Below are positions 5,080 to 32,000 of a stretch of 32,000 bases of DNA, in pieces (position 1 is the first letter of the stretch; every line of letters starts with the position of its first letter). A model generated the notes under the pieces. The model was not told where the DNA came from. It worked only from the letters and a program-made list of their open reading frames with translations, and ran no database searches. A program made the translations under genes and the position numbers. Source of the DNA: Raphidiopsis brookii D9 (GTDB lineage Bacteria; Cyanobacteriota; Cyanobacteriia; Cyanobacteriales; Nostocaceae); assembly GCA_000175855.1 (NCBI GenBank), contig ACYB01000019.1:54084-86083 (forward strand). The letters are read 5' to 3'.

Positions 5080-7532
5080 ATGTTTGAACACTTTACATCC
5101 GAAGCCATTAGGGTAATTATGTTAGCGCAGGAGGAGGCACGCCGCCTGGGTCATAACTTTGTCGGCACAGAACAGATTCTCCTGGGCTTAATAGGGGAAG
5201 GAACAGGTGTTGCGGCGAAGGTTCTGACAGATTTGGGTGTGACCCTCAAGGATGCGCGTCGGGAAGTTGAAAAATTATTGGTAGGGGTTCTGGTTTCGTC
5301 CCACCCGAAATCCCTTTCACCCCGAAAGTCAAGAGTCTATTTGAGCAGTCTTTTAGAGAAGCTCACGGTCTTGGTCACAACTACATAAACACAGAACACT
5401 TATTGTTAGGATTAACTGATGCGGGAGAAGGGGTTGCAGCCAAGGTATTAAAGAGCCTTGGGATTGAACTACAGACAGTCCGCAGTAGAGTGATGAGTAT
5501 ATTGGGTGAAGATAATAGAGTGGTTGCTGGTCGTCAAGACAACCCCAGGCGCAACCAGAATCTCAGTATAGAAGAATTTGGACGTAACCTCACCAAGTTG
5601 GCCCAACAGGGGAGGTTAGATCCGGTAGTGGGTCGACAAACGGAGATTGAACGCACCGTACAAATATTGGGTCGTCGTACCAAGAATAATCCTGTGTTAA
5701 TTGGTGAACCTGGGGTGGGGAAAACCGCAATTGCTGAAGGTTTAGCCCAACGGATTGTGAACCAGGATGTTCCCGAAATATTGCTGAATAAACAGGTAAT
5801 TAGTCTGGATATGGGCTTGCTGGTTGCGGGAACACGCTTCCGGGGAGATTTTGAAGAGCGTCTGAAAAAGGTGATGGAGGATATTCGCTCCGTCGGCAAT
5901 ATTATCTTGGTGATTGATGAAATTCACACTATTGTAGGTGCTGGCGGTACGGAAGGAGGTTTGGATGCGGCCAACATACTCAAACCCGCCCTGGCCAGGG
6001 GTGAACTACAATGTATCGGTGCCACCACTTTGGATGAATATCGGAAGTATATTGAGCGGGATGCAGCTTTAGAAAGACGTTTTCAACCAATTTTGGTAGG
6101 GGAACCATCAGTGGCAGAAACCATAGAAATTCTTCGAGGTCTGCGCAGTGCTTATGAGCAACATCACAAGGTAAATATTTCCGATGATGCGGTTATTGCT
6201 GCAGCTGAGTTATCAGATAGGTACATCAGCGATCGCTTTCTGCCTGATAAAGCCATAGACCTAATAGACGAAGCTGGTTCTCGGGTAAGGTTAAGGCACT
6301 CCCGAATCATTGATAACAAAGAGCTGAAACAACAACTGAAAAATACCAGCCAGGAGAAAGCGGAAGCGGTAAGAGTTCAAGACTTTGGCAAAGCTAGTAA
6401 ACTCCGTCAGGAAGAGCTAGATTTACAAACCCAACTAGCGATCGCGCAAAATTTGCCCAGGATTACCATTCCCCAGGTAGACGAAGAGGATATTGCCGAA
6501 ATAGTGTCCTCCTGGACGGGAGTACCTGTCAATAAACTGACTGAATCTGAATCTGAGTTGTTGTTGCATCTAGAAGATACACTGCATAAAAGACTAATTG
6601 GACAGGAACAAGCGGTTACAGCAGTTTCCCGTTCTCTTCGTCGCGCCCGCGTGGGGTTAAAAAGTCCTAATCGTCCCATAGCTAGTTTTATCTTCAGTGG
6701 ACCTACAGGGGTGGGGAAAACCGAACTAGCTAAGGCTTTAGCAGCCTACTTCTTCGGTGCGGAAGATTCCATGATTCGTTTAGATATGTCCGAATACATG
6801 GAAAGCCATAATGTTTCCAAATTGATTGGTTCGCCTCCAGGTTACGTAGGGTACGATGAGGGTGGACAACTGACGGAGGCGGTAAGGCGTAAACCCTACA
6901 CATTGCTGCTGTTTGACGAAATTGAGAAAGCACATCCCGATGTGTTTAATATGTTGCTGCAAATCCTAGATGACGGTCATCTTACGGATGCTAAAGGTAG
7001 GAAAGTGGACTTCAAGAACACCCTAATTATCTTGACATCCAACATTGGGTCTAAGTTAATTGAAAAGGGTGGTATGAGTTTAGGTTTTGAATTTGATAAT
7101 CAGGCCAACGCTAGTTACAATCGCATTCGCAATCTGGTCAACGAAGAACTTAAGTCCTATTTCCGTCCTGAATTTCTCAATCGAGTAGATGAGATTATCG
7201 TCTTCAGTCAGTTGAATAAAGACGAGGTCAAAGAAATTTCCCAGATCATGCTTGAGGAAGTTGCTAAGCGTCTTCAGGAGAAAGGGATTAAGTTAGAGGT
7301 GACAGAAGCATTTAAAGACCTAGTAGTTACGGAAGGCTATGATCCTAGTTATGGTGCTAGACCATTACGTCGGGCCATAATGAGACTATTAGAGGATTCC
7401 TTAGCGGAGGCCATTTTGTCCGGTGAGATTGGAGAAGATGACCAGGCCATTGTAGATGTTGATGACGATGGTTTGGTGAAGGTGAAGAAAGCAGAAACGC
7501 GTGACTTGGTACTAGTTAGTGCTCCTGCTTAA
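5080..7532 (+). pseudogene. clpC: ClpC-type Clp protease ATP-binding subunit (class I AAA+ chaperone), interrupted by a one-base frameshift
   Basis: Track ORFs 5080..5388 and 5403..7532. The N-terminus [49 protein letters not shown] is canonical ClpC up to ..REVEK. The conserved continuation [47 protein letters not shown] is read in the -1 frame starting at the A5 run 5270-5274. Both AAA modules are present ([18 protein letters not shown]), with a UVR-like middle region. Confidence 0.85.
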
Positions 7533-7612: not shown

Positions 7613-8686
7613 CTATAGTGCAAAGTCCATGGTCTCAATAAACTCCAAAATATTCTGCTTCATGTCCTCAGCTTCATCTAGAATGGAACCTCGAAGGTCA
7701 CCAGTAAAAAATGTTCGTTGACTGCTAACTATATACAAAAAATTTCCATTCGTGAAAGTCAATAATCCACGGTATGCATCTAGTCTTGTTGGGTTACCAT
7801 TGTTTTTTCGTTGGGAAATGCTTGAACCTTTAGGCATGTCCACTAGCACATAATAGTAACTACTTAAAGTATCTTGGAGTAAGCTATCCTGTAGGTACTC
7901 AGTGTACTTTATTTCTGCACCTAGGATATGTTTCAAAATAGCTTGGGGTAAATATCTTTCAATTAAAACAGAGTGGAGATATGTTTCTTGTCCTTGTTCC
8001 TCCATGGTTTCTAAATGTTCTTTAGTAAGGGGATAGTAATCAATTCTGATAAAAGTTCCCCCACTGTCAGAGAAACCAACCATTCCCTGTTGACTAACTA
8101 TCTTCCCCCCTCGTTCTGATGTTACAGGTACAACAACTCGGAAATTATTTGAAGGAGATTGGTATATTTCCTGTCCCAATTCATCTACTATAATTTCCGG
8201 TTGTTTTAATTCTTGTGTATCTTCTATATTTTGTGGGTCTTCTATTACTGCTATTACCTCTCTAATAACTTCCTCAGCTTCTATATCCTGCAATTCTAAG
8301 GCTTGTTGTAGTTGTTTGATGTATGACTGTTTTTCCTTAGGTATGGTCATACTCTCTTCTTCCAGTAGCATTACTACACCAGCAGCAAACGCGTCCAAGA
8401 CTATATCACTTTTTAAACTTGTATTGGCAGTATTAAATAGGGAACCTAATCCTTCCTCCTGAGCAATAATTACTAGTCTATTGACCATTTCTAAGATTTC
8501 CTCTTGGGAGTACCCATCAAAAACCTGAAATTCCAGTAAGATATCCGCTAAACTTTCCGTGTCTATATCTTCTATAGTACAGTCAACAGCTGCACTAATA
8601 ATTGCTATAGCTGCTACTGCTTCCTCTGAATTTAGGGATTCAGTTGTAAATGCTGAGGAATTAAAAATTTTATCATACTTGGTCAT
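7613..8686 (-). CDS. Hypothetical protein, acidic, 357 aa
   Basis: Long uninterrupted ORF with an ATG start. No motif I can assign with confidence. The N-terminal ~110 aa is a helical acidic region and the C-terminal ~190 aa is of unknown fold. Confidence 0.6.
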   Translation of the reverse strand: MTKYDKIFNSSAFTTESLNSEEAVAAIAIISAAVDCTIEDIDTESLADILLEFQVFDGYSQEEILEMVNRLVIIAQEEGLGSLFNTANTSLKSDIVLDAFAAGVVMLLEEESMTIPKEKQSYIKQLQQALELQDIEAEEVIREVIAVIEDPQNIEDTQELKQPEIIVDELGQEIYQSPSNNFRVVVPVTSERGGKIVSQQGMVGFSDSGGTFIRIDYYPLTKEHLETMEEQGQETYLHSVLIERYLPQAILKHILGAEIKYTEYLQDSLLQDTLSSYYYVLVDMPKGSSISQRKNNGNPTRLDAYRGLLTFTNGNFLYIVSSQRTFFTGDLRGSILDEAEDMKQNILEFIETMDFAL

Positions 8687-11624: not shown

Positions 11625-12877
11625 CAAGGTGGTTCAAGGTGAAAATAATACCAGACAAAAATAATATAAATTTTGATCCTCATGGAAGCAACCCCTATTT
11701 GTGGAAGTTTTGGGGTGTTCTCCCTCTTTATCCCTATAATCAACGTCGCACTGTTCGTCAAGAGGTGGTTAAGGATACTATCTGGACCTTTGATCAAATC
11801 CAGGGAGTTTTTTATGTGGTTGTACCCATCCGCATGACGGTGATTAGATTGGCACAGGGTGGTTTATTAGTGTATGCACCTGTTGCTCCCACTCAGGAGT
11901 GCATTAAATTAGTAAATGAACTAGTGGCCTTGCATGGAGATGTGAAGTACATTATTTTGTCTACAGTCTCTGGACTTGAGCATAAGGTGTTTGTGGGACC
12001 GTTTGCTAGGGAATTTAGTCAAGCAAGGGTTTTTGTAGCTCCTGGACAGTGGAGTTTTCCCCTGAATTTACCTTTGAGTTGGTTAGGTTTACCAGGGAAC
12101 CGCACCCAAATATTACCTGAAGATCCTCATGAGACCCCTTTTAGTGATGAGTTTGATTATGCTATCCTTGGACCAATTAATTTGGGACTAGGCAAATTTG
12201 GGGAAGTGGCTCTCTTACATAAGCAGTCCCGCACCTTAATGGTTACGGACACAATAGTTTCCGTTTCTGTGGATTCACCAGCAATAATTCAATTGGATCC
12301 ATTCCCCTTACTCTACCATGCTCAGGAAAAAAGTGGTGATACTGTTCCTGATAACTTACAAAACCGACGGAAAGGATGGCGAAGAATTACTCTCTTTGCC
12401 TTTTATTTCCGTCCCAGTGCAGTGGATGTACCTCCATGGAAGGATATATGGCAAGATGCCAAAAATGTGTCCCAGCGCAATTTGAGAAATTATTTTGGTT
12501 TTTTCCCCTTTCACTGGAAACCAGACTGGGAAGAATCTTATGAGTTGCTAACCAGGGGGGGAGAAATTTTTGTTGCTCCTGTTTTGCGAACCCTGATTTT
12601 AAACCGAGCTCCCCAGGTAACTATAAATTGGGCAGATCGGGTAGCAAAATGGGATTTTGCATGGGTTATTCCCTGTCATTTTGATGCACCTATTTCTGTT
12701 ACTCCCCAACAATTTAGAAGAGCTTTTAGCTTTTTGGAAAAAGGTTCCACAGACTATTTACCTCACAATACTAAGGTGGAGGAGGATTTACAGGTTTTGA
12801 GGGATATTGACCAGGGATTAAATAATTGGAACATCGTTCCACCCGCTCTCCCTAACCCGAATTCCAGGGTTCGGTAA
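11621..12877 (+). CDS. Conserved cyanobacterial/plastid-lineage protein (I recall DUF4336; family name from memory)
   Basis: 418-aa ORF overlapping the AKR stop by 4 nt. Conserved-looking blocks WTFDQIQGVFYVVVPIRMTVIRL and LLVYAPVAPT. The track start is TTG, and GTG 11639 is an alternative. Confidence 0.55.
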   Translation: MTRWFKVKIIPDKNNINFDPHGSNPYLWKFWGVLPLYPYNQRRTVRQEVVKDTIWTFDQIQGVFYVVVPIRMTVIRLAQGGLLVYAPVAPTQECIKLVNELVALHGDVKYIILSTVSGLEHKVFVGPFAREFSQARVFVAPGQWSFPLNLPLSWLGLPGNRTQILPEDPHETPFSDEFDYAILGPINLGLGKFGEVALLHKQSRTLMVTDTIVSVSVDSPAIIQLDPFPLLYHAQEKSGDTVPDNLQNRRKGWRRITLFAFYFRPSAVDVPPWKDIWQDAKNVSQRNLRNYFGFFPFHWKPDWEESYELLTRGGEIFVAPVLRTLILNRAPQVTINWADRVAKWDFAWVIPCHFDAPISVTPQQFRRAFSFLEKGSTDYLPHNTKVEEDLQVLRDIDQGLNNWNIVPPALPNPNSRVR

Positions 12878-20677: not shown

Positions 20678-23098
20678 TTAACCACTAAGAAGACCTATTA
20701 TTCTATCCTCTGTAGAACATCCTTCAATCAGTTCCCGAAAATAGTCATTTAATGACCTCTCACGGCTGATTGTTTGCAGAATAATTCTATCATTTTGAAA
20801 ATGATTAATTACTGCTTGCGCCAATGCAATTTCCTGGGAACCAGTTTGACAGAAGTTATTATTGTAAGCACGAAAAGTCAAGAGATAAATTAGGGATAAA
20901 AAAGCATTCTGCTTATATTGAGGATCCAAGTCTTGATAATTTCTACTGAGTAAATAATTAAGAATTTTTATAAAGTGTTCCTGATAATTTAGAGAGATTG
21001 AAGCAACATTAAAATCAAAATTATAGTACCAAAGTAAAATTCTGCCATATCCCCATAGATATTTTTCCAGATTATACATGGAATCAAATAACATGAAATA
21101 CCTATCCTGCAATTCTTGACTTACTGCAATTCTAGAGAAACACTGTAGATACTCATTTGATAAACCGTTATCATACCTGGTATAAAGACATCTTAATTGG
21201 GATAGAGAAAATAATCGATCTAATAGCAGATTCTGCGAACATATATATTGGGAGAATCGATACAATTTGCCAGTGAAAATTATTAAACTAAGCAGTAAAC
21301 CTCTTTCATAAGAATTTAGTCTTCTTCTATGGCGATCGCATGCAGAAAACACTTTAGATATTAAATTAATCATTCTATGGAGTTGAGCATTTTCCAACTG
21401 TTGGGCCAACAGAGTAACATTGGGATCATGGGATGAGATATCTACAAACTGTAGTAAATCAGGTTGTTGACTTAGGCATTGATAAGCATTTCTAAAACTA
21501 GCAGTTAACTCCTCATACTGATTCCTAGATTGATCCAGTCCAGTGGCAATTGCATTTAAATAAGTGGGGAAATCTTGAAACCTATGATTAACTGTCAATC
21601 GCCCAATTTGGGATAAAGATCTTTGTTGACGATTTTGATTAATGTTTTCAGGTGGAATATAACTGTAAAATGTACTTTCACTATGTCTATCCACCAAACT
21701 AGTTTGAATAATGTACTGATTATCCAAATCCCTAACGATCAATTTAGGAAAAGATCCTGGTTGTAAACGAAAATTAATCTGAACTAAAATCTCTTGAGGA
21801 TTTTCATTATCTTCATAGTTTTGAATTTCAATTTTATAGTCTTGAGGAATACCATTTATGCAGTAATCACTATCATTTACCCTGATAGGTAATTTGGCAA
21901 TTCTTGTCCCACTGGGAATTCTCATAAAATCCTGATTTCTATTAGGAATACTTCCCACTAATACCGTTTCTCTCCCCTCAAAAGAAATAGCATCTCTTTC
22001 CTCCGATAGTTGAATCCAGACCTCCTGATTATCAATAGCGATAGCAAATTCAATTGTATCCAGATAAATACCAAACAGAGGGAAACCTTGTCTATTTCTA
22101 TCTATCCATAGTTCTGAAAAGTTTTGAATATTGGGTTTAAGCACCATAAACCTAGATAAGTCTTGATCACTTACTTGTGGTCTTAATCTCTCAAAAATAT
22201 TATATTGACCAACTAACACAAACTGATATTGGGAGTACTGATGGGCAATTTGATTGAGTGGAGCAAGATTAATTTGTCGATAAACGACTTCGGCAATGTC
22301 TAATATGCTGACGGTAATTCGTTTATAAAAAATCTCCTGATTATGGTATATTTCAATAATCAAACTGATGGACTTCTCATCAATATGAGATTGAACTATT
22401 TTGAAAAAGTTAATTCTCTGTAAATAATTAGATAAATGGCTAATGGTTTCCAGGTTATTTGACAATTCAGGAAACTGTCTTAAAAAGATTCTTGATATCT
22501 GAGAACATATCTGATTATATATTGCTTGACAATCATAGTTATTACTAAATGGAATTCTATTTCTGGTGTCGAGAATAGGAATTAAATGGGGAGTATTTTC
22601 TTGTCTTTGAAAACTAACAGGAATCAAAGTAGAAGTATCAAAACTGTCCAAATCGACAAATACTAGTGGTTGATAAGATTGACTACGAGCTTGATATTCA
22701 GAAATTTCCCCATAGTGGTTCCAATAATGATAAGCACTAGCATATAAATATCCATCCCTAGATCCAATAATATTACTCATACTCAAAGTCAATAAATCCA
22801 ATGTATCACTGACTATATATAGACGCTCCTTGTCCCCTGTAAATAATTCAATTCCCAGGTGAAGATAATCTGGTTCTTGTGGGTTATCTTGTAGGTGACT
22901 AGTATTAGTAGTTAAATGAGATGGAAGATCATTATTAGCTACTGGTGCAGATAAATAGGGGTAAGCAGAATACCTATCCAAAATCCTAGTTTTATACTCT
23001 TGGCTGGATTGGGGGATTATTGCTTCAGATGTACCTCCAAACTGATGAGCATACTCACAAGCATCAATATAAGATTGCAAATTAAATAACTTAGTCAT
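20678..23098 (-). CDS. Large hypothetical protein (806 aa), last gene of the island; function unknown
   Basis: ATG 23098 preceded by AAGGAA, 14 nt after the PLD stop. N/Q/Y/I-rich. I see no P-loop, HKD, PD-(D/E)xK or other motif. Contains the only perfect HIP1 site in the island (21332-21339). A 37-nt piece of its 3' end recurs at 31356-31392. Confidence 0.7.
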   Translation of the reverse strand: MTKLFNLQSYIDACEYAHQFGGTSEAIIPQSSQEYKTRILDRYSAYPYLSAPVANNDLPSHLTTNTSHLQDNPQEPDYLHLGIELFTGDKERLYIVSDTLDLLTLSMSNIIGSRDGYLYASAYHYWNHYGEISEYQARSQSYQPLVFVDLDSFDTSTLIPVSFQRQENTPHLIPILDTRNRIPFSNNYDCQAIYNQICSQISRIFLRQFPELSNNLETISHLSNYLQRINFFKIVQSHIDEKSISLIIEIYHNQEIFYKRITVSILDIAEVVYRQINLAPLNQIAHQYSQYQFVLVGQYNIFERLRPQVSDQDLSRFMVLKPNIQNFSELWIDRNRQGFPLFGIYLDTIEFAIAIDNQEVWIQLSEERDAISFEGRETVLVGSIPNRNQDFMRIPSGTRIAKLPIRVNDSDYCINGIPQDYKIEIQNYEDNENPQEILVQINFRLQPGSFPKLIVRDLDNQYIIQTSLVDRHSESTFYSYIPPENINQNRQQRSLSQIGRLTVNHRFQDFPTYLNAIATGLDQSRNQYEELTASFRNAYQCLSQQPDLLQFVDISSHDPNVTLLAQQLENAQLHRMINLISKVFSACDRHRRRLNSYERGLLLSLIIFTGKLYRFSQYICSQNLLLDRLFSLSQLRCLYTRYDNGLSNEYLQCFSRIAVSQELQDRYFMLFDSMYNLEKYLWGYGRILLWYYNFDFNVASISLNYQEHFIKILNYLLSRNYQDLDPQYKQNAFLSLIYLLTFRAYNNNFCQTGSQEIALAQAVINHFQNDRIILQTISRERSLNDYFRELIEGCSTEDRIIGLLSG

Positions 23099-23112
23099 TG
23101 GTTTTTGTTCCT

Positions 23113-24291
23113 TTATCGTAATAAGTAAAGTTGGTTAATAAGTTGGTTAATTTTATTAACATCAGTGGTTTTATACATTAAATCATATAGGGTCGAATTA
23201 GAGTTAGAATTATAATATGAATTAAAACTAAAATTAATTCCCCCGATATAAGCTACTCGATTGCCTAAGATGGTAATCTTAGCATGGAGATTATCAACAG
23301 CGTGAAAGTTCTCAAGATTAAATCTTTCGATATAAAACCTTCGATTGTTTTCAGATACACTAGAATTAATAAAAACACTGGTATTTGAATTTAGATAAAC
23401 TGCCATTTCCTGTGAAGGTTTGAAATCACGACTGTAAATTCTGACCTCCATATCTCGTGGAAGATTGCGCCAATTTTCGACCACGTCCCTTTGATATTGC
23501 GCTGGAGTTAAAAAGTTTGATTCTACGGAAAATTCAGCGCCATATCTCTTTTGGGGAGAATACATCACAGAACGTAATCTAAAACCGCAACCGTTAGGCT
23601 CAGGAAAGACTTGATATTTGCTCCGGGTGTACCAAAAAGTTTGAAAAAAATTAATCAAATTTTGATGTTCAAAATTATTACTAAAAATTATTCCCGCCTC
23701 CTTATTAAAATCTAAACTTCCTCGTGTGAGATTAGAGGAACCTAAATAAGCGGAGCGATCAGAAATATAGGTTTTTAAATGAAAAGCACCACTCCGAATA
23801 GATACATTACTATTCAACAGCATTTTCAAACAAGATTTTTTCCGTTCATCACTTATTCTATATCTTTCTGGAATGCTAATATGTTCTAATATCTGTTCAT
23901 CAATACGATCTAAAAGCTCATTGTTCAAATCTGTTAAAATCCAGACTCCTTTTGGTAACTCTAATGATTTTTGACAAATTAATTCTGTTAATTCTTCATC
24001 CTCTATAATATAACTAGAGACCAGTAGAAATTCACTAGCTTCCTGAATGATTTTGTAAATAGTATCCCGACTTTTACCATGATTTCTACCATTATGAATT
24101 ACAAATTCAAATTGGGAACCATGGGTAGTATCTGGTTGTAATTCACTGGGTAAGTTTATGGTTGGATATATGTGACGCTCATGTCTTGACCGATATTGTT
24201 CGACTAAATAACTAACATCCTCTGACAAAGTTGATATGTGGTCTTGCTGGGTATTATCTCTTATATGACTATCTTCATTTAAGCGCAGCAA
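23113..24291 (-). CDS. Phospholipase D (HKD)-family nuclease-like protein, two PLD repeats
   Basis: First motif HLKTYISDRSAYLGSSN (His codon 23779-23781) fits HxK(x)4D..GSxN. Second motif HAKITILGNRVAYIGGIN has HxK but Gly in place of Asp. The track start is TTG, and there is no in-frame ATG until residue 157. Confidence 0.8.
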   Translation of the reverse strand: MLRLNEDSHIRDNTQQDHISTLSEDVSYLVEQYRSRHERHIYPTINLPSELQPDTTHGSQFEFVIHNGRNHGKSRDTIYKIIQEASEFLLVSSYIIEDEELTELICQKSLELPKGVWILTDLNNELLDRIDEQILEHISIPERYRISDERKKSCLKMLLNSNVSIRSGAFHLKTYISDRSAYLGSSNLTRGSLDFNKEAGIIFSNNFEHQNLINFFQTFWYTRSKYQVFPEPNGCGFRLRSVMYSPQKRYGAEFSVESNFLTPAQYQRDVVENWRNLPRDMEVRIYSRDFKPSQEMAVYLNSNTSVFINSSVSENNRRFYIERFNLENFHAVDNLHAKITILGNRVAYIGGINFSFNSYYNSNSNSTLYDLMYKTTDVNKINQLINQLYLLR

Positions 24292-24397
24292 TGTAATAGC
24301 AGATCTTAAGGTTAAAGATAATTCGTCTACAGAAATCCAAATCTTGACTTTTTGATGAGTTTCATTTGATAGATAACAATCCCAATTGATAAAAAAA

Positions 24398-24949
24398 TTA
24401 ACTCAATTCATGAGATTTTAAAGCATAATCTATTTTTTCAATATCAGATAATTTTTGCCAGTATTGCCAACTATTATTCCATATTATCTGTATAAAATCT
24501 AAGTTTAGATCTGGATAGTTAGGTTCTGAAATTGTTATAATGTAACTTCCCATCTGTTCACAAACATCACTTGAAAAAACTGGGAGTTGTGGATCCCTAG
24601 GTGTTAGATTCAGATTTCCCTGTTCACAGATAAAATTATAGGCATATTGATAAATATCCAAGTTATCCAATTGAGATTTTAGGGGTTTTAATAATTTCAG
24701 AGGTGGTACTTGGTAAATATCACTTTCCTTAGTAACACCACGGGAATTCTTGCATAAGTTAATTAGCACCGGTTCCGGAATGAAATCTAACCCAAAAGAC
24801 TGACGTAACAATTGAGGTGTTCTGCGGTGATATCGTGTTCCTATTGCTTGTACCTCATGGATTAAATGGTTTAAAGTCCTGGGTATAACTTCTGTTGCAT
24901 TTAACAGTGACCTTGCAAATTTTCCCGATAGTTCAATTTGAATTTTCAT
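24398..24949 (-). CDS. Hypothetical protein (183 aa)
   Basis: ATG-initiated ORF on the same strand as the island genes, with about 105-125 nt gaps on either side. No recognisable motif. Confidence 0.5.
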   Translation of the reverse strand: MKIQIELSGKFARSLLNATEVIPRTLNHLIHEVQAIGTRYHRRTPQLLRQSFGLDFIPEPVLINLCKNSRGVTKESDIYQVPPLKLLKPLKSQLDNLDIYQYAYNFICEQGNLNLTPRDPQLPVFSSDVCEQMGSYIITISEPNYPDLNLDFIQIIWNNSWQYWQKLSDIEKIDYALKSHELS

Positions 24950-25073
24950 ATTTTCAAGTTGGTTTTTTAAGTTGGTCTTGTGAGTTACTTATAGACTATT
25001 GAAATTAGTTGTCGATTAAGCATATGGGTCACAAACTGGAATCTAGATATAATAACATAAATGAGATCATAAC

Positions 25074-26787
25074 CTAAATAACAACTTGAGTTTCTATAGA
25101 TAAAGAGGATTGATATAATAGTGATCTGATGGGAGAACGAGATTCCTGCCATAAAACATGATCACCAACTAAAAATAGCTGATCTTTTGCTCTTGTCAGT
25201 GCTATGTTAATATCTTCCAAGGCAATATTGTTAGGACCACCAGAACAAGCAGTCATACAATTCACAATGATAATTCTTCTTTCCGCACCACTCCATTCTT
25301 TGGCTGTACCAATAAATATGGGACTAAATTGAGGATGGTTTGCAGTTAAAACCTCCCTGAGATTATCTCTCTGTGTTTCAGAAAATGTAATGATGCCAAT
25401 TTCCGAGATAATTTCTGAACTCAGAGTCTGAGTCAAGTTTTCTACGAGTTCGTAAATTTTCTCTCCGACTGATTGACTTACCGTCAACCTTTCAGACATA
25501 TTTTTCCAAGTTACTCCCCTGGCAATTTGACTCAGATTAGAAACATTATAATCAATATTGGGGTAATGAGTATATACCCAATGATCACAAATAACAGGAT
25601 AAACTGTCTCAGCTATTTTTGGATGTAGTCTAAACTGTTCTCGCAATTTGTAAACATAAGCTGGAGACAAGTTTTCTTGCAACCATTGAAAACAGTTAAA
25701 AAACTTACCGGAAAAAAGAATTTCTTCTAGAATTATGATTTTCTTGATGTTGTTGTATGTGTGAATAACATGAAAAATATCTTCTGGGGATATCCTCACC
25801 AAATAACACCAGTTTTTGACACAATCCTGATAAAAAGATTAATTCTCTCCAATTCAGAAGATTCGCTTCCTCCACTATGATCAAATCAAAATCACTATCC
25901 CATAAAGGTTTATTTTCCAGTTGCATAAAGTCAGAAACAGTTCCCATAATAGTCACCTGCGGATTTGCCACAAGTTGATTGGCAAGTTCTTCAATTTCTA
26001 CTTCCGAAAGATTGTTATAAATTTGCATCAATCTTAACTGCTCTTGAAGAAAAGGTAATAATTGCTGGAGACGATGGGCCAATAATTGTAACCGGGGCTC
26101 TGCTAGATGGGCAAATTCTGTAAATTCGGATCGTAATATTTCCATTATTTGCTCATTTGTTTTATCTACAATTTCTGGCAATAATGTCTCTAATATAGCT
26201 GGTGTTCTCAACTTGGCTAATTCTCCGTCTGGTAATAAATATAATGGCAAATAGTCCATTCTTGTTCGCGCCAAATTATGCAGGATATGATCCCGTAACT
26301 GATTTACCATCCGTTGAGAATAATTTTCTTGTTGAGACAATAAAAATGGATAAGTTGTGAGATTGTAATAGGGGTTTAAAGATGCCAAATTATGAGCTAA
26401 AATCAAAACCTTATAGGAACAGTCTATAGCAGCTTGGACAAGATTTTTGGCAATAGCAGTTTTTCCCGTTGCTGCTGTTCCAGAAATCAGAGTAATAGGG
26501 CTATTGGAAAGGGCCATTTCTAGCGCTATTTGTTGACTTGCACTGAGAAAGGTTTTATATTTAATGGAAGGAAAGTTTAAAGATGCTCTCTTCTGTGAAT
26601 AATATCCTTGGTTACATAGTGTTTCGATGATTAAATTTGTGGGTAATGATGGAGAGTTATAAATATAGTTATAAATTTCGACCAGTTTTTCCGATTGTGC
26701 TTGGCTAATTGGTGAAATTTCATCTGATTCATATATTAAATTTTGTAATTGCTGTCGTAAGTTTTGTCTAGTAATTCTATTAGTCAT
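25074..26787 (-). pseudogene. Superfamily-1 helicase, Upf1/DNA2 (AAA_11/AAA_12)-like, split by a frameshift
   Basis: Track ORFs 25705..26787 and 25074..25802 overlap by 98 nt in different frames. The N part has Walker A GTAATGKT (26458-26481) and Walker B DLIIVEEA. The C part has LREQFRLHPKI (YRMHP-like), TAKEWSGAERRIIIV (QG.E-like) and NIALTRAKDQLFLVGD. Its start overlaps the stop of the 125-aa ORF (ATGA). Confidence 0.8.
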
Positions 26788-27161
26788 AATGTAAATCCTC
26801 CAACTACTTCAATTAAGGTATTAAAAATTATTTCCACTGTTTGAGAAAATCCCTGTTCTGTAAAATTCTCAGGTAACTTTACCAATCTCAAGTTGGGGAA
26901 TAGTTCCTCATAGCTTGGACTATCATCTAGACTATAATTTTGAGTGTGATCTTGTAAATATAAGACTATTGCTCCGGCGAATAAACCATTATTTTCTAAT
27001 TCCTGATTCCTTAAATTATGCAAATAATAATAACCCATTTGATTGATTACATCTCGACTGGGAAGATACCAAAATACCCAGATAGGAAATTGTAACTTAT
27101 TGGAATTTAGCTCCATGGAATCTAGCTGATGAATTTCTAAAGTCAACATCCAATCACCCAT
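26784..27161 (-). CDS. Hypothetical 125-aa ORF (possibly the detached C-terminal part of the McrC-like gene)
   Basis: ATG 27161, with no convincing RBS. Its reading frame is open upstream to 27218 and overlaps the end of the preceding fragment. Its stop overlaps the helicase start. Confidence 0.45.
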   Translation of the reverse strand: MGDWMLTLEIHQLDSMELNSNKLQFPIWVFWYLPSRDVINQMGYYYLHNLRNQELENNGLFAGAIVLYLQDHTQNYSLDDSPSYEELFPNLRLVKLPENFTEQGFSQTVEIIFNTLIEVVGGFTL

Positions 27162-27181
27162 TGCTATATTAGACGGTTTTT

Positions 27182-28407
27182 CTAACCCAAATACACAAAC
27201 CCGGGTTTGTAAAACACCCTAACCTTAATATTTTGATCTGGACTTAGATAACGTCCCTGGTCAGGAATTAACTTGCAGCTCACACCTACGGTTGGATCTA
27301 TATTTACCCCTTGTAATCTTAGCAGACCGACTATCAAATAAATATAGATAGCATCTGCCAACAAATAATTTCTAAACCCCACAAATTCTCTTTTTCATGC
27401 TTTTTTCGTATGTATTCCAAATAAGCTTGATAAAAACTCTTGTATATGGTATTTTGCTGTAAAACATAATTTGGCTTGGTGAATTGATAACCTCTGTTTT
27501 GAATAGTCTTAACTGTTGGCAGTTGTTGAAATAAATCAATTACTAATCTGATTTTGTTAATTTGTGATCTAAACTGATTAGCGTTACTTATTTCATATTG
27601 AACACAATTCAAATGGAAAATTCGGGCAAAATAAACCAGGAATTTATTTTCAGGGGTGTTGAAATCTTGATAGCGTTTAATACCCATAAGTTCTTGTTTT
27701 GAACCTGCTTTTTCTTCAGGAGTTGAGCCAGGTCTGCGAATATAATCACGTAAACAATAACTATCCATCTCCTGAATTTTACCCACAGGAATAAGTTCCG
27801 CTTTTCTTGTAAGTTGATGACGCAATCTAGAACCGATTAATTCTAATTTTTGATGCAGTTGATATTTGTTATCTAAACTAATGACAATTGGCAAATTAGC
27901 GTCTTCTATATTTACAGAGTCTAGTTTTTGGGATAGTCCACTCAGTAAAATATTAGCTTCAGAGTTGATCCTAGTTGTTCCACTAGATATATGTGTAAAC
28001 ATGCCAATAAATAACCGGACTAATTCGGATGCTGTTCTATCCAAACGATTTCCTAATCTGTGTTCCCATTCCGGGATTTCCACTTCTTCTTTAATCGTTT
28101 CTAAGTCTAAAACATCAGTAATAGATAAATTATAGCCTTGTCCGGGAATTGCCAAACTTAACACATATCTTAAACTTGCATGATGGTCATGATCATAGTG
28201 TAAATCAGTTGGTTGTAAGTAAGGAAATCCCACCTCATAAATTCCTTGACTAATGGGAATAAACCAAGATGGTAGGGATAGAAGTTCATCTTCATCTAAT
28301 TCCAGTACAAGAATTGGACGGTGACTAGCTTCCAGGGCGAAAATATCTGATATCAGGGGAGATTGATGTTGATTAAGATAAGCAAACAAACTGGGATATA
28401 TTCTCAT
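27182..28407 (-). pseudogene. McrC-like / DUF2357-type partner of the McrB-like NTPase, apparently frameshifted
   Basis: Track ORFs 27334..28407 and 27182..27382 overlap by 49 nt. The start ATG shares one base with the upstream stop (TAATG at 28405-28409). The internal block RYQDFNTPENKFLVYFARIF resembles the (D)TPEN(R)F signature of McrC/DUF2357 proteins. The second fragment contains YLSPDQNIKV, a possible PD motif of a PD-(D/E)xK fold. Confidence 0.6.
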
Positions 28408-30521
28408 TATGCTTCCTCATCCTCATACACCAAACCTTGCCAACTAAATTGTCCGTAACGTCCTTCTTTGGCTTTGTCAAAAGCCTTAATCAATGGTTGG
28501 TCATTGATTTTATCGATAATTTCCTTCATTTCTTGCAGTTGTTGATGTGCTTCATCAACCATCACACCCCGTAATTTTGGCAATAATTTTTGTCCAAACT
28601 GATCCGCAAGAGCAAATTTAAAGGACTCGGAATCAATACCATTAACTTCTGGATAGTTAACAACATATTGAGCAATAGCTTGATATACACGATGGGCGAA
28701 GGGATGTCCCATTTTTTCCATGACTTTATTGGCTTCATTCAGGTAAGATTCGACCTCTTTAACCACATCCGATTCAGGAACTGGAGTTCTCACCCAGTTT
28801 TGAAAATCAGAATAGGTTACGTAACTGGAATCCCGATTATTAACCAGATTATCAGAATGTTGATTAACAGTTATTTGTTGACCCGATCTTTGACGCAATT
28901 TTAAATTTTGGGGTCTACCAAAAGTTAAAACATTTGCTTTATCCAAGACCTTATCTGACAAGGTTTGTGTAGTTTCATCCTCATTCATGGTTCCCACAAA
29001 TAAAAAGGCTTTAGGAATTTCTAACCGCCGTTCGCTTTCAGCAATTGGCAGACTACCAACATCGATTTCTAAATAGGTGGCATGATTGCGACGACTTTCT
29101 AATTTAGACAAGAACTCACTGAAATAATATTCTACCCTAGCCAAGTTCATTTCATCCAGTAATACTATAACTATTCTATTACTCATTTCTGGATCTTTAT
29201 ACTGATAGAGTCCTCTCATTAATTGGGTGGGTTTAAATTTCTTTTCCAGATAGTTATAAAACCCCTGTAAATCTTGAGGAGAATCCCAGCGTGGTTGTAC
29301 AGCTAATGTGAGTAATTGGGCTCCAATATAATTGGCGTATCTTTGGGGAAGTTCACTTTTACCGGTACCACTAATACCCGCTAAAATCACTAGAGCAGAA
29401 ATATCTTGTACCTTTAAAGATGTATGAAAAGCCTTAATTGTTCGGCTTGAAAAACTTAATCCTTCACTCCTGAGACTGGTAATAAAGTTTTGTATAAACT
29501 GGGTTTCTCCTTCTAGTTGTCTAACTTGTCTAGGTAAGTTGGTCCATAATTTCTCCCGTAAAGGTTCTAGGGCAACTCTACCACTATTTTCTATCTCTCT
29601 AATTTCTCCTCTGAGGTTGGCAATTGTTGTCTCAATCTCCAGTTTTGTTTGCTGTAAGTTATCAGTTTCAGTTTGTAGGTTATGATTCCTAGTTTGTAAA
29701 TTATTTCCTTCGTTTTCCAATTCTCTTAATCTTGATTCTTGATCTCTAATGGTTAGTGTTAAGCTACGGTATTGTTCTCTTAATTCTATCAGTTTTTGAT
29801 AGTTATTTTGATTTTCCTCAATAGTTTGTAAAATCCGCTGTTTCTCTAATTCTAATCTGTCTATTTCAGGGTTTAGTTGACTCACTTTTGCTTCATAATC
29901 TTGTTTTTGACTAAGAATTGCATCATAGGTAAAACGTAATAGTTCTAATTCAGCAGCACGTTGTTCCAATTCCTGAGACTGATTTGTTAGTTCTTGAACC
30001 CGTGCATTTAACCTATTTAAATCAGCTTTTTGAGAAACTATTTGTGACTCAACCGAATTAAGTTGTAATCTTTTAGAGTCTAAAGATTCGACTTGAGAGT
30101 TGAGTTGTGTAATTCTTGCTTCTAAATTGTTTCTATCAATTGTAGATTCTTCAATACTAGTACGCAGTGACCTTAAGTCAGCTTTAGATGCTTCAATTCT
30201 TCGTCCGAGTTCTTCCAATTCAGACAAATTGGGATTTTCCTGATTAATTACACGAATACAATTTTCCAGTTTTTGTTTTTCTTGTGTCAGAGTGGCGATC
30301 GTTTTATTGAGTTTTTTTTCCTCCAACTTACTGACAACAGAAGCTCCCATGATTGCTCCTGTGGTAATTCCCAATACTCCCACTCCAATTCTTCCAGTAA
30401 TACCACCCACACCAGCGATACTAATTCCAAATATAATACCACAGCTAAGCCCACCAACTATCATCCAATCTTTCATATTAATCAATACCTTTTTGAATGT
30501 AAAAGTAACTGTTTGTAGCAA
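28407..30521 (-). CDS. McrB-like AAA+ (AAA_5) NTPase with N-terminal glycine-zipper membrane segment and long coiled coil
   Basis: P-loop GISGTGKS (29355-29378). LAVQPRWDSPQDLQGFYN, Walker B VLLDEMNLARVEYYFSEFLS and FVGTMNEDE are all arranged as in McrB-family GTPases. Residues ~18-65 are Gly/Ile/Val-rich (GxxxG spacing). Residues ~66-345 are heptad-like and Q/E/L/N/R-rich. The track start is TTG 30521, and ATG 30476 (MKDWMIVGG) is more likely. Confidence 0.8.
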   Translation of the reverse strand: MLQTVTFTFKKVLINMKDWMIVGGLSCGIIFGISIAGVGGITGRIGVGVLGITTGAIMGASVVSKLEEKKLNKTIATLTQEKQKLENCIRVINQENPNLSELEELGRRIEASKADLRSLRTSIEESTIDRNNLEARITQLNSQVESLDSKRLQLNSVESQIVSQKADLNRLNARVQELTNQSQELEQRAAELELLRFTYDAILSQKQDYEAKVSQLNPEIDRLELEKQRILQTIEENQNNYQKLIELREQYRSLTLTIRDQESRLRELENEGNNLQTRNHNLQTETDNLQQTKLEIETTIANLRGEIREIENSGRVALEPLREKLWTNLPRQVRQLEGETQFIQNFITSLRSEGLSFSSRTIKAFHTSLKVQDISALVILAGISGTGKSELPQRYANYIGAQLLTLAVQPRWDSPQDLQGFYNYLEKKFKPTQLMRGLYQYKDPEMSNRIVIVLLDEMNLARVEYYFSEFLSKLESRRNHATYLEIDVGSLPIAESERRLEIPKAFLFVGTMNEDETTQTLSDKVLDKANVLTFGRPQNLKLRQRSGQQITVNQHSDNLVNNRDSSYVTYSDFQNWVRTPVPESDVVKEVESYLNEANKVMEKMGHPFAHRVYQAIAQYVVNYPEVNGIDSESFKFALADQFGQKLLPKLRGVMVDEAHQQLQEMKEIIDKINDQPLIKAFDKAKEGRYGQFSWQGLVYEDEEA

Positions 30522-30909
30522 TAAGACTATTTCAGTATAGGACGGGTCTAACGCACTCCTGTTGTATTGTTTTTACAAGATTCTGAGGAATCTGACAATG
30601 AGGGTAATATAAATAACTACAAAACACTCCCGCATCTATCAAAAGATAGATATTTAGGAAATTTTAAGGTAATATCTGAGTCAAGACTCGTTAAGACCTC
30701 CAGCAATAGGGATTGCTGGTGGTTTGGTCACTTCTACCATCCTTCAGTTTTTCTACCGGTGTTCTATGCTATTCTGGAGGGTTACTCCCCCAGAAACTTT
30801 CGCTGACATCAATTGTGAATAATTGGATAATTTGAGTTGTTGTAGAATGACATGTTGTACAATGGGTAACTATCAAAAATTTTACCTACAATAAGGAACC
30901 CCGGGAATT

Positions 30910-31050
30910 ATGGCGCGTCTAGCATTGCTGAGTGTATCAAACAAAACAAATATAATTAATCTGGCTCGAACCCTAGTAGAAGAATTTGATTTTGATATCA
31001 TCAGTAGTGGAGGAACTGCTAAAACCCTCAAAAATCCTGGGATACCTGTA
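30910..31050 (+). pseudogene. purH: purH 5' fragment (bifunctional AICAR transformylase/IMP cyclohydrolase, first ~47 codons only)
   Basis: [47 protein letters not shown] matches the PurH MGS-like N-terminus. Similarity stops after GIPV, and the ORF then reads through unrelated sequence to a stop at 31104. Confidence 0.7.
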
Positions 31051-31081
31051 AATGGCAGGTTGTTACTAAAGTTAAACCTAC

Positions 31082-31357
31082 TCCAGATTGACGAGTTCCC
31101 ATGACCTCTCCTGGACCGCGAAAGCGCATATCCATTTCAGAAATAAAAAACCCATCTTGTGACTGCTCTAAAACCTTCAATCGTTGTTGAGCATCCGGGT
31201 TTCTGGAACTACTCATTAAGAGAAAATAGGACTGGGCCATACCTCTACCTACGCGCCCCCGTAGTTGGTGTAACTGGGATAGTCCAAATCTCTCCGCATG
31301 TTCAATTAACATAACAGTAGCATTAGGTACGTCTACCCCTACTTCTACCACAGTAGC
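31082..31357 (-). pseudogene. recG: recG 3' fragment (SF2 helicase motifs V-VI region only)
   Basis: Track ORF 31028..31351 reads (T)[37 protein letters not shown]...[17 protein letters not shown], which is the RecG C-terminal helicase core. The upstream ~600 codons and the normal C-terminal tail are both missing. An in-frame TAA lies immediately upstream. Confidence 0.75.
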
Positions 31358-31392
31358 TGATTATTTGCAGAATAATTCTATCATTTTGAAAA
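31356..31392 (-). repeat. 37-nt duplicate of the 3' region of the 806-aa gene
   Basis: GCTGATTaTTTGCAGAATAATTCTATCATTTTGAAAA matches 20765-20801 with one mismatch. In the intact gene this encodes HFQNDRIILQTIS. Confidence 0.85.
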
Positions 31393-32000
31393 GGTCTTCC
31401 AATTCAGGTAAATTGGGATTTTGTTGATTAATGACAAGAACGCGATGTTCCAATTCCAGGGACTGATTTGTTAATTCCTGAACCCGTGCGTCTAACCTAT
31501 TTAAATCAACTTGTTGAGAAACTATTTGCGACTCAATCGAATTAAGTTCTAAGCTTTTAGAGTCTCTTCTGGATTCTAAAGATTCAACTTGAGAGTTGAG
31601 TTGTGTAATTCTTGCTTCTAAATTGTTTCTATCAATGGTAGATTCTTCAATACTAGTACGCAGTGACCTTAAGTCAGCAGCACGTTGTTCTAATTCCTGA
31701 GACTGATTTGTTAGTTCTTCAATCCGCGCGTCTAACCTATTTAAATCAGCTTGTTGAGAAACTATTTGCGACTCAACCGAATTAAGTTCTAATCTTTTAG
31801 AGTCTAAAGATTCAACTTGAGAGTTGAGTTGTGTAATTCTTGCTTCTAAATTGTTTCTATCAATTGTAGATTCTTCAATACTAGTACGCAGTGACCTTAA
31901 GTCAGCAGCACATTGTTCTAATTCCTGAGACTGATTTGTTAGTTCTTCAATCCGCGCGCCTAACCTATTTAAATCAGCTTGTTGAGAAACTATTTGCAGC
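31361..32000 (-). pseudogene. Partial coiled-coil ORF paralogous to the N-terminal half of the McrB-like gene; open to the window edge, with a chimeric 3' end
   Basis: Not in the supplied track because it is open at the right edge. My translation of the minus strand is ..ADLRSLRTSIEESTIDRNNLEARITQLNSQVESLDSKRLELNSVESQIVSQQADLNRLDARIEELTNQSQELEQRA (repeated) ..LELEHRVLVINQQNPNLPELEDLFKMIELFCK*, with stop TAA at 31361-31363. The last ~12 codons are the 806-gene fragment read out of frame. Confidence 0.6.
31449..32000 (-). repeat. In-frame tandem repeat, 228-bp (76-codon) unit, about 2.4 copies visible
   Basis: Unit starts at 31675 and 31903 (period 228). The first copy (~31449-31674) carries a 12-nt in-frame insertion. 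Unit 31675-31902 differs from 29951-30178 of the intact gene at about 10 positions by my hand alignment. Confidence 0.85.

Follow-up and report, generated by a model that had tools for sequence, protein, structure and literature searches.

The coiled-coil nuclease tandem (CoCoNuT) of Type III-C is a defence system derived from McrBC and driven by nucleoside triphosphates, and it has been described by comparative genomics (Bell et al., eLife 2024, PMC11090510). In that description, CnuB combines a coiled coil with a McrB-like GTPase whose NxD signature is usually followed by E or D, CnuC carries an immunoglobulin (IG)-like domain, DUF2357 and an inactivated PD-(D/E)xK domain, and CnuH is a Upf1-like helicase with a large helical insertion after Walker A. 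CnuE consists of a distorted, elongated winged helix-turn-helix (wHTH), a coiled coil and two phospholipase D (PLD) domains. CnuD is encoded by a separate gene and defines the subtype, with an Hsp70-like nucleotide-binding domain (NBD) and substrate-binding domain (SBD) and HEAT-like repeats. The type is without the TerY-P module, and its hosts are mostly Cyanobacteriota (PMC11090510). In Pseudomonas aeruginosa, the type II CoCoNuT, or Obs system, confers protection from RNA phages and from one DNA phage (bioRxiv 10.64898/2026.04.06.716636), and besides it we found no other CoCoNuT with experimental protection in the literature. Here we analysed a 32,000-nucleotide stretch of the Raphidiopsis brookii D9 genome (contig ACYB01000019.1, positions 54,084 to 86,083 of the forward strand; hereafter, the window), which holds a block of minus-strand genes that we compared with these systems.

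The analysis showed, with a probability of roughly 90%, that the block at 20678-30476 is a five-gene Type III-C CoCoNuT operon, with the genes cnuB, cnuC, cnuH, cnuE and cnuD in this order from 5′ to 3′ on the minus strand. By exact look-up, the CnuE orthologue of the sister strain Cylindrospermopsis raciborskii CENA303 was OSO89773.1, which is the Type III-C CnuE (PLD) representative in the preprint domain table of Bell et al. (eLife 2024, PMC11090510). A Calothrix homologue (P0034) with 45% identity to the 806-aa protein of the window proved, again by exact look-up, to be MBD2218435.1, the Type III-C CnuD representative of that table (PMC11090510); the CnuC encoded in that Calothrix operon is MBD2218432.1. 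OSO89773.1 and MBD2218435.1 are published III-C representatives, and the D9 locus corresponds to the published Type III-C CoCoNuT as its direct orthologue. The system type, the gene set and the orthologous sister-strain locus are already in the literature, and the system is not a new one.

An earlier reading of the window, made by a model from the letters and their open reading frames (ORFs) only (the sequence-only reading), had proposed seven minus-strand genes, among them those for a coiled-coil McrB, a McrC, a Upf1-like helicase and a PLD nuclease, in a system of the CoCoNuT class derived from McrBC. The class was right, and all sizeable ORFs at 20678-30521 do lie on the minus strand. The Pfam search supported the AAA_5/McrB, DUF2357, AAA_11/AAA_12 and PLD assignments. 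Both gene junctions were also seen in the sequence, TAATG where cnuB meets cnuC and ATGA where the 125-aa ORF meets the helicase. The number of genes is five, not seven, and the extra ORFs are pieces split by one-base frameshifts. The genes, their pieces in the window and their lengths in relatives are as follows:

28407..30476, minus strand: cnuB, McrB-like GTPase preceded by a long coiled coil and, at the N-terminus, a hydrophobic segment; 689 aa from ATG 30476 (MKDW...), listed as a 704-aa fragment; about 720-830 aa in relatives
26784..28407, minus strand: cnuC, McrC-like protein with a beta-rich N-terminus, DUF2357 and a nuclease-like C-terminus; split into 357-, 66- and 125-aa ORFs; 516-545 aa in relatives
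25074..26787, minus strand: cnuH, Upf1/DNA2-like superfamily 1 (SF1) helicase; split into 360- and 242-aa ORFs; 517-570 aa in relatives
23113..24949, minus strand: cnuE, N-terminal domain, linker and two HKD/PLD domains; split into 183- and 392-aa ORFs; 565-611 aa in relatives
20678..23098, minus strand: cnuD, predicted Hsp70-like NBD/SBD followed by helical (HEAT-like) repeats; 806 aa, intact; 772-803 aa in relatives

The relatives showed the same gene order. The nine ORF fragments of the window fell in order onto five ORFs across 26 cyanobacterial loci, most of them with a complete operon (tblastn), so the genes are linked in other genomes. The operon was a contiguous set of five ORFs in 12 of the 12 loci mapped from stop to stop. 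The three cnuC fragments lie in three frames in the window (tblastn) and form a single ORF in all relatives; cnuH and cnuE are likewise single ORFs there. The 26 loci were retrieved with an alignment of CnuD homologues among 185,579 species representatives and come from Anabaena, Dolichospermum, Nodularia, Calothrix, Tolypothrix, Arthrospira/Limnospira, Planktothrix, Lyngbya and others; all are cyanobacterial, aside from metagenome-assembled genomes (MAGs) labelled Obscuribacterales. A protein search with the 806-aa CnuD gave 71 homologue clusters, all unannotated, and the 27 clusters with an organism name were all cyanobacterial but one MAG labelled Obscuribacterales.

The sister strains are the two C. 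raciborskii strains CENA303 and JAPTYE01. Over 17.3 kb, the window DNA is 99.2% identical to CENA303 and 98.7% identical to JAPTYE01, and both strains carry the operon at the same chromosomal place, adjoining recF. Their gene calls comprise five genes (828/833, 541/545, 570, 611 and 803 aa). The operon copies labelled Candidatus Obscuribacterales, which are non-photosynthetic Melainabacteria (L024, DATNRE010000552.1; P0071/P0215), have gene coordinates identical to those of two Planktothrix loci (L018 and L021). Because the coordinates are identical, these copies may represent a mis-binned contig and not a spread outside Cyanobacteria.

The GTPase core of CnuB was recognised by Pfam AAA_5 (expect value (E) 3.2e-8, above the cut-off), and residues 67-350 matched coiled-coil regions of SMC, Rad50 and ASRP profiles. 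The sequence 'FLFVGTMNEDETTQ' was identical in 15 of 15 CnuB sequences (the window and 14 relatives), with the motif MNEDE invariant. The ORF was listed as 704 aa from TTG 30521, the start taken by the sequence-only reading; the likely start is ATG 30476, which is shared with the sister strains and UPI0002D700BC. The D9 gene is in frame, and relative to the 828-aa CENA303 protein its product lacks about 139 aa of the coiled coil. In C. raciborskii, 228-bp tandem repeats make up the coiled-coil DNA of cnuB, the length of which varies. The CnuB features in the window are as follows:

30333..30464, minus strand: N-terminal segment at about aa 5-48, rich in glycine, hydrophobic and almost without charge (hydropathy)
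29355-29378, minus strand: Walker A, GISGTGKS
29145-29165, minus strand: Walker B, VLLDEMN
28974..28985, minus strand: NxD signature N-E-D-E (GTPase motif)

The N-terminal segment of CnuB spans about 45 residues. All eight N-termini tested (8/8) showed Kyte-Doolittle maxima of 1.5-2.1 over 19 residues and repeated small-xxx-small motifs, and the remaining seven were similar by eye. No Pfam match was obtained for this segment, and membership in a known Pfam glycine-zipper family was considered, but none fitted. The main text of Bell et al. (PMC11090510) contains no hydrophobic CnuB N-terminus and mentions transmembrane helices for other systems only. The segment is predicted to be membrane-associated or glycine-zipper-like. 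A membrane segment had been noted on the NTPase by the sequence-only reading; its conserved hydrophobic character is borne out, and the case for a membrane role is one of hydropathy. We speculate that the Type III-C CnuB N-terminus could be a genuine membrane anchor or a glycine-zipper pore-former, with the machine working at the membrane, although we consider this unlikely. If it were true, the machine might sense genome entry at the membrane, or kill the cell through permeabilisation as an abortive-infection arm, and the variable 228-bp coiled-coil repeats and tandem cnuB copies of Cylindrospermopsis would tune the apparatus. The conserved hydrophobic N-terminus is one concrete new hypothesis that comes out of this locus.

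CnuC showed the expected partner domain, with DUF2357 on the 357-aa ORF (Pfam E 2.8e-8 to 6e-8, above the gathering score). The AlphaFold2 model of CnuC had a pLDDT (predicted local distance difference test) score of 85.5 and a predicted template modelling (pTM) score of 0.84, and its best Foldseek match was E. coli McrC (6hz4_M, E 1.2e-4, probability 0.99). A sequence-profile search of CnuC against PDB chains gave nothing meaningful, and the link to McrC comes from the Pfam DUF2357 match and the fold search only. In the model, residues of about 1-100 form a beta-rich N-terminal region. The model has an alpha/beta C-terminal domain (375-540), and the fold matches to MspJI, MUS81 and EcoT38I were weak. 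The conserved residues D419...E425-x-H427 (window 27129-27155, minus strand) lack Lys at the ExK place in sets of 14 and 55 sequences; as judged from these sequences, the catalytic lysine of the PD-(D/E)xK domain is lost. The 125-aa ORF (26784-27161), which had been taken as one of three unknown proteins, corresponds to the last quarter of CnuC, which the second frameshift near 27215 separates from the rest, and it begins exactly at the conserved GDW.L.LEIH core of the nuclease-like domain. The sequence-only reading had placed a McrC ORF at 27182-28407. The DUF2357 assignment stands, but the ORF is not continuous and changes frame near 27381. One member of the CnuC cluster, the 1066-aa P0232 of Tolypothrix (BAY90680.1/EKF01436.1), is about as long as CnuC and CnuH together, which could reflect a fusion of the two or an annotation that reads through the ATGA overlap.

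CnuH and CnuE provide the helicase and the nuclease. The two pieces of CnuH matched Pfam AAA_11 and AAA_12 (AAA_12 E 4e-17), and its profile matched only Upf1-like helicases in PDB (8ftm, DNA2, SEN1, IGHMBP2 and UPF1). Helicase motifs I, II, IV and VI are intact and conserved. About 190 conserved residues lie between Walker A and Walker B in the sequence. The earlier call of an SF1 helicase at 25074-26787 holds for the family and fails for the reading frame, which changes near 25707. In CnuE, the 392-aa ORF matched PLDc_2 (6e-18) and PLDc (2e-8) in Pfam, and both HxK...N motifs are invariant in 14 sequences. This two-HKD nuclease had been considered a free-standing gene; it is the C-terminal two-thirds of CnuE. 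The 183-aa ORF (24398-24949), the second supposedly unknown protein, is the N-terminal third of CnuE and aligns to that region of the family, of which one member (MBD2218434.1) is the wHTH representative in Bell et al. (PMC11090510). The motifs of both proteins are as follows:

26458-26481, minus strand: CnuH Walker A (aa 103-110)
25864-25887, minus strand: CnuH Walker B (aa 301-308)
25182-25202, minus strand: CnuH motif VI
23731-23781, minus strand: CnuE first HKD motif
23233-23286, minus strand: CnuE second HKD motif

The 806-aa protein, the last of the three supposed unknowns, is CnuD, and in the window it is identical to EFA73804.1 of R. brookii D9. Its AlphaFold2 model (pLDDT 77.6) showed an alpha/beta region at 117-340, a beta region at 343-470 and helices at 483-805, the latter about 320 residues of helical repeats. 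Among the Foldseek matches listed against PDB, 50 of 50 were Hsp70, Hsp110 or DnaK or complexes containing one of them, with a best E of 1.5e-7. In the model, the fold of CnuD is Hsp70-like. Compared with both sister strains, D9 cnuD carries an in-frame 15-nt insertion and a 6-nt deletion (~21064 and ~21193) in the helical-repeat region. CnuD has 806 aa in D9 and 803 aa in the sister strains, and these length changes look real.

A mechanism for the system can be proposed from McrBC biochemistry, as summarised from Niu et al. (2020), and from Bell et al. (PMC11090510); as a whole it is tentative, and we rate it somewhat short of even odds. CnuB would form a hexamer that is held by the coiled coil and may be anchored to the membrane through the glycine-rich N-terminus; it would bind CnuC through DUF2357, as McrB binds McrC, and act as a GTP-driven switch or motor. 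With the CnuC nuclease lost, cleavage would be handed to the helicase-nuclease pair CnuH-CnuE, which would couple ATP-driven unwinding to HKD cleavage. The degenerate Hsp70-like module of CnuD may recognise the target, possibly RNA or ribosome-associated features, as predicted by Bell et al. (PMC11090510). Coiled coils would hold the assembly together, and the outcome would be degradation of the invader nucleic acid (RNA and/or DNA), possibly with abortive infection. Some points weigh against RNA as the target and against the scheme. PLD-family nucleases cut DNA too, our literature search found no experimental test of any Type III-C system, and the target, trigger and outcome of the type are inferred.

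The identity of the block has two alternatives. One is that of the sequence-only reading, a novel seven-gene McrBC-derived system with three unknown proteins that fits no described subtype. It draws on the separate listing of the ORFs as hypothetical proteins in the D9 annotation and on the database searches, in which PADLOC v2 and NCBIfam gave no system-level assignment and the 806-, 183- and 125-aa ORFs had no match in Pfam, NCBIfam or PADLOC. Among the PADLOC PDC-M26 models, CnuB alone matched PDC-M26A, and only partially (profile positions 113-435 of 724; E 4e-42 to ~1e-42), and no other gene, intact or fragmented, matched any of them. Every relative, however, has five genes with the fragments fused, the orthologues are published Type III-C representatives, and the 806-aa protein folds as an Hsp70-like CnuD. 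Type III-C covers the full gene set, which refutes the novelty, though not the function, and leaves this alternative with almost no chance. Known systems that share single domains were also considered. DISARM was rejected, since the PLD domain matches DrmC models (E 1e-11) but no other DISARM component (DrmA, DrmB or methylase) is present, and so was Mokosh, for which the MkoA hidden Markov model match is a domain-level similarity only. The other alternative is that the module has no antiviral role and serves filamentous cyanobacteria as housekeeping machinery for RNA or protein quality control, as its Hsp70-like protein, its Upf1-like helicase and its fixed position adjoining recF in C. raciborskii might suggest. 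We consider this very improbable. The distribution is patchy (26 loci among the species representatives), and copy number, length and integrity vary between strains. The block has a low guanine-cytosine (GC) content of 0.33-0.37 vs 0.40-0.46 in the flanks, a difference in composition that had already been pointed out. The descent from McrBC and the phage protection by the related type II CoCoNuT also speak against housekeeping.

The D9 copy of this Type III-C operon differs from its relatives in integrity. Lesions were scored against both sister strains and are as follows:

~27381, cnuC: one G lost (G5 to G4); frameshift
~27215, cnuC: one T lost (T5 to T4); frameshift
~25707, cnuH: extra T and adjacent C-to-G; frameshift with immediate TAA
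~24401, cnuE: extra T (T1 to T2); frameshift with immediate TAA
23099, intergenic: extra A; no effect

Four one-base indels split three genes, and as written the operon encodes only CnuB and CnuD intact. We judge it somewhat more likely than not that the lesions of cnuH and cnuE, at least, are real, with the system inactive in D9. The cnuC pair resembles homopolymer miscalls of 454 sequencing. The cnuH and cnuE lesions are not changes of homopolymer length, and each makes an immediate TAA. The 9.8-kb operon has four coding frameshifts, compared with one in 18.4 kb of flanking coding sequence, and the comparison with the sister strains gave five single-base indels within the operon and none across the 7.8 kb of flank that could be compared directly. 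An independent Cylindrospermopsis-like assembly (L029; GCA_002321935.1, NPIK01000051.1) has A5 to A6 in cnuB (3898) and T6 to T8 in cnuH (7994), the latter within a few bases of the D9 cnuH lesion. The region upstream of the operon is visibly rearranged. Several results weigh against real decay. The clustering of frameshifts in the operon is marginal (p ~0.05 with clpC counted); an earlier value of p ~0.015, which had all frameshifts in the operon, was withdrawn when the clpC frameshift was found in the flank. The D9 assembly of 2010 draws on GS20 reads of the 454 platform at 27x, supplemented by few Sanger reads. The essential clpC gene is split in the same window by a one-base shortfall in an A5 run, which is most likely a 454 homopolymer error of the assembly, and adding one A restores an uninterrupted 817-aa ClpC:

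5080-7532, plus strand: clpC, in two ORFs of different frames, with 102 aa (Clp_N) and 709 aa (AAA_2, ClpB_D2-small); A-run at 5270-5274

The two cnuC lesions are undercalls in 5-nt homopolymers. In addition, cnuC and cnuE differ from CENA303 at 0.11-0.12% of sites, below the housekeeping flanks, and this low divergence gives no sign of relaxed selection in the sequences compared. With full-length genes in most other C. raciborskii strains, these points favour a working, unbroken operon in living D9 and four frameshifts that all come from assembly errors, for which the A6 read as A5 in clpC offers a parallel. This is a serious contender, which we put at a little under an even chance. It has difficulty with the extra T and C-to-G of cnuH and the T1 to T2 of cnuE, which are not typical consensus errors at 27x, with the indel count in the comparable flank, and with the other frameshifts that the second assembly has in the same operon. 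Phase variation was also weighed, in which short homopolymer tracts would turn a costly defence operon on and off reversibly. The D9 (G5, T5) and L029 lesions do lie in or beside homopolymers, and the cnuH lesions of the two strains nearly coincide. Its chance is nevertheless very small, as the tracts of 5-6 nt are far shorter than those of typical contingency loci, two lesions lie outside tracts, most strains are in frame at all sites, and sequencing error is a simpler account of the homopolymer lesions. Real lesions in at least cnuH and cnuE remain the reading that we slightly favour.

The flanks agree with the earlier placement of the block between recF downstream and a remnant of purH upstream. 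A truncated second cnuB-like copy, which contains the coiled coil only, lies beyond this remnant and runs off the window. Tandem Repeats Finder (TRF) found in it a period of 228 bp (76 codons) with 2.4 copies and 91% match, and its DNA is 88-94% identical to the coiled-coil DNA of sister-strain cnuB. In the sister strains L028 and L029, this position is occupied by an additional, complete cnuB of 914 aa. The two cnuB copies of D9 are separated by a patchwork of gene pieces with blastn matches to 910-1124 and 12289-12325 of locus L027, and CENA303 has a complete purH and a 90-aa ORF at this place. The patchwork at 30835-31392 suggests repeat-driven rearrangement. The features of this region are as follows:

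30835-31049, plus strand: purH 5′ fragment, 215 bp (MGS domain on a 64-aa ORF)
31028-31351, minus strand: recG 3′ fragment (RecG_dom3_C and Helicase_C on a 107-aa ORF)
31356-31392: cnuD 3′-end piece, 37 nt
31361..32000, minus strand: truncated second cnuB-like copy (stop at 31361-31363)

No TerY-P module (VWA, PP2C or kinase) was found among the neighbours, which are recF, a P-type ATPase, a transglutaminase-like protein, phosphoglucomutase and the purH and recG fragments. A scan for promoters and terminators gave no useful signal in DNA this rich in AT, with 61 promoter-like sites vs 46 expected and three terminator-like sites vs 5.8 expected. A 357-aa ORF without a Pfam match (7613-8686, minus strand) was observed among the housekeeping genes of the window.

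The discovery value of the locus is small, as the type, the gene set and even the sister-strain locus have been published. The ORFs of the block are annotated as CRD_01120-01128 of R. brookii D9. For this annotation, the analysis turns seven "hypothetical proteins" (CRD_01120, 01122-01125, 01127 and 01128), the PLD ORF and the 66-aa ORF into five named genes. With a homopolymer frameshift even in clpC, apparent pseudogenes in the D9 454 assembly should be re-sequenced before they are read as genome decay. For testing Type III-C, the intact CENA303 operon (B7O87_11520-11540; OSO89770-OSO89773 and OSO89846) offers a construct that can be used as it is.

Compared with classical McrBC of E. coli K-12, the D9 locus has the same AAA+ McrB-type GTPase core and DUF2357 McrC partner. 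It differs in the NxD of CnuB, where McrB has NxxD, in a CnuB N-terminus with a hydrophobic segment and a coiled coil and no Pfam DNA-binding domain, in a CnuC without the catalytic lysine, and in three extra proteins of the operon. On the motif, the N-terminus and the lysine, we rejected membership in classical McrBC. The type II/Obs system shares the CnuB-CnuC-CnuH-CnuE logic, whereas it has a HEPN RNase effector, SmpB-like and RelE-like domains on CnuH and a TerY-P kinase/phosphatase triad, and no CnuD. The Type III-B CoCoNuT, found mostly in Alphaproteobacteria, is alike in its coiled-coil CnuB with NxD, its CnuC with an inactive nuclease, its separate CnuD and the absence of TerY-P. As effector it carries, in fusion with the helicase, a Vsr-like PD-(D/E)xK nuclease, in contrast to the separate two-HKD PLD protein of D9, and it has a separate coiled-coil CnuA, of which there is none in the D9 operon. 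From the Type III-C CoCoNuT, the D9 copy differs in its four one-base frameshifts in three genes, its shortened coiled coil, its adjoining truncated second cnuB and its glycine-rich hydrophobic CnuB N-terminus, which the main text of the paper leaves unmentioned. It shares with Type III-C the coiled-coil CnuB with NxD, the DUF2357 CnuC with an inactive nuclease, the Upf1-like CnuH, the two-PLD CnuE, the separate CnuD, the absence of TerY-P and the cyanobacterial hosts.

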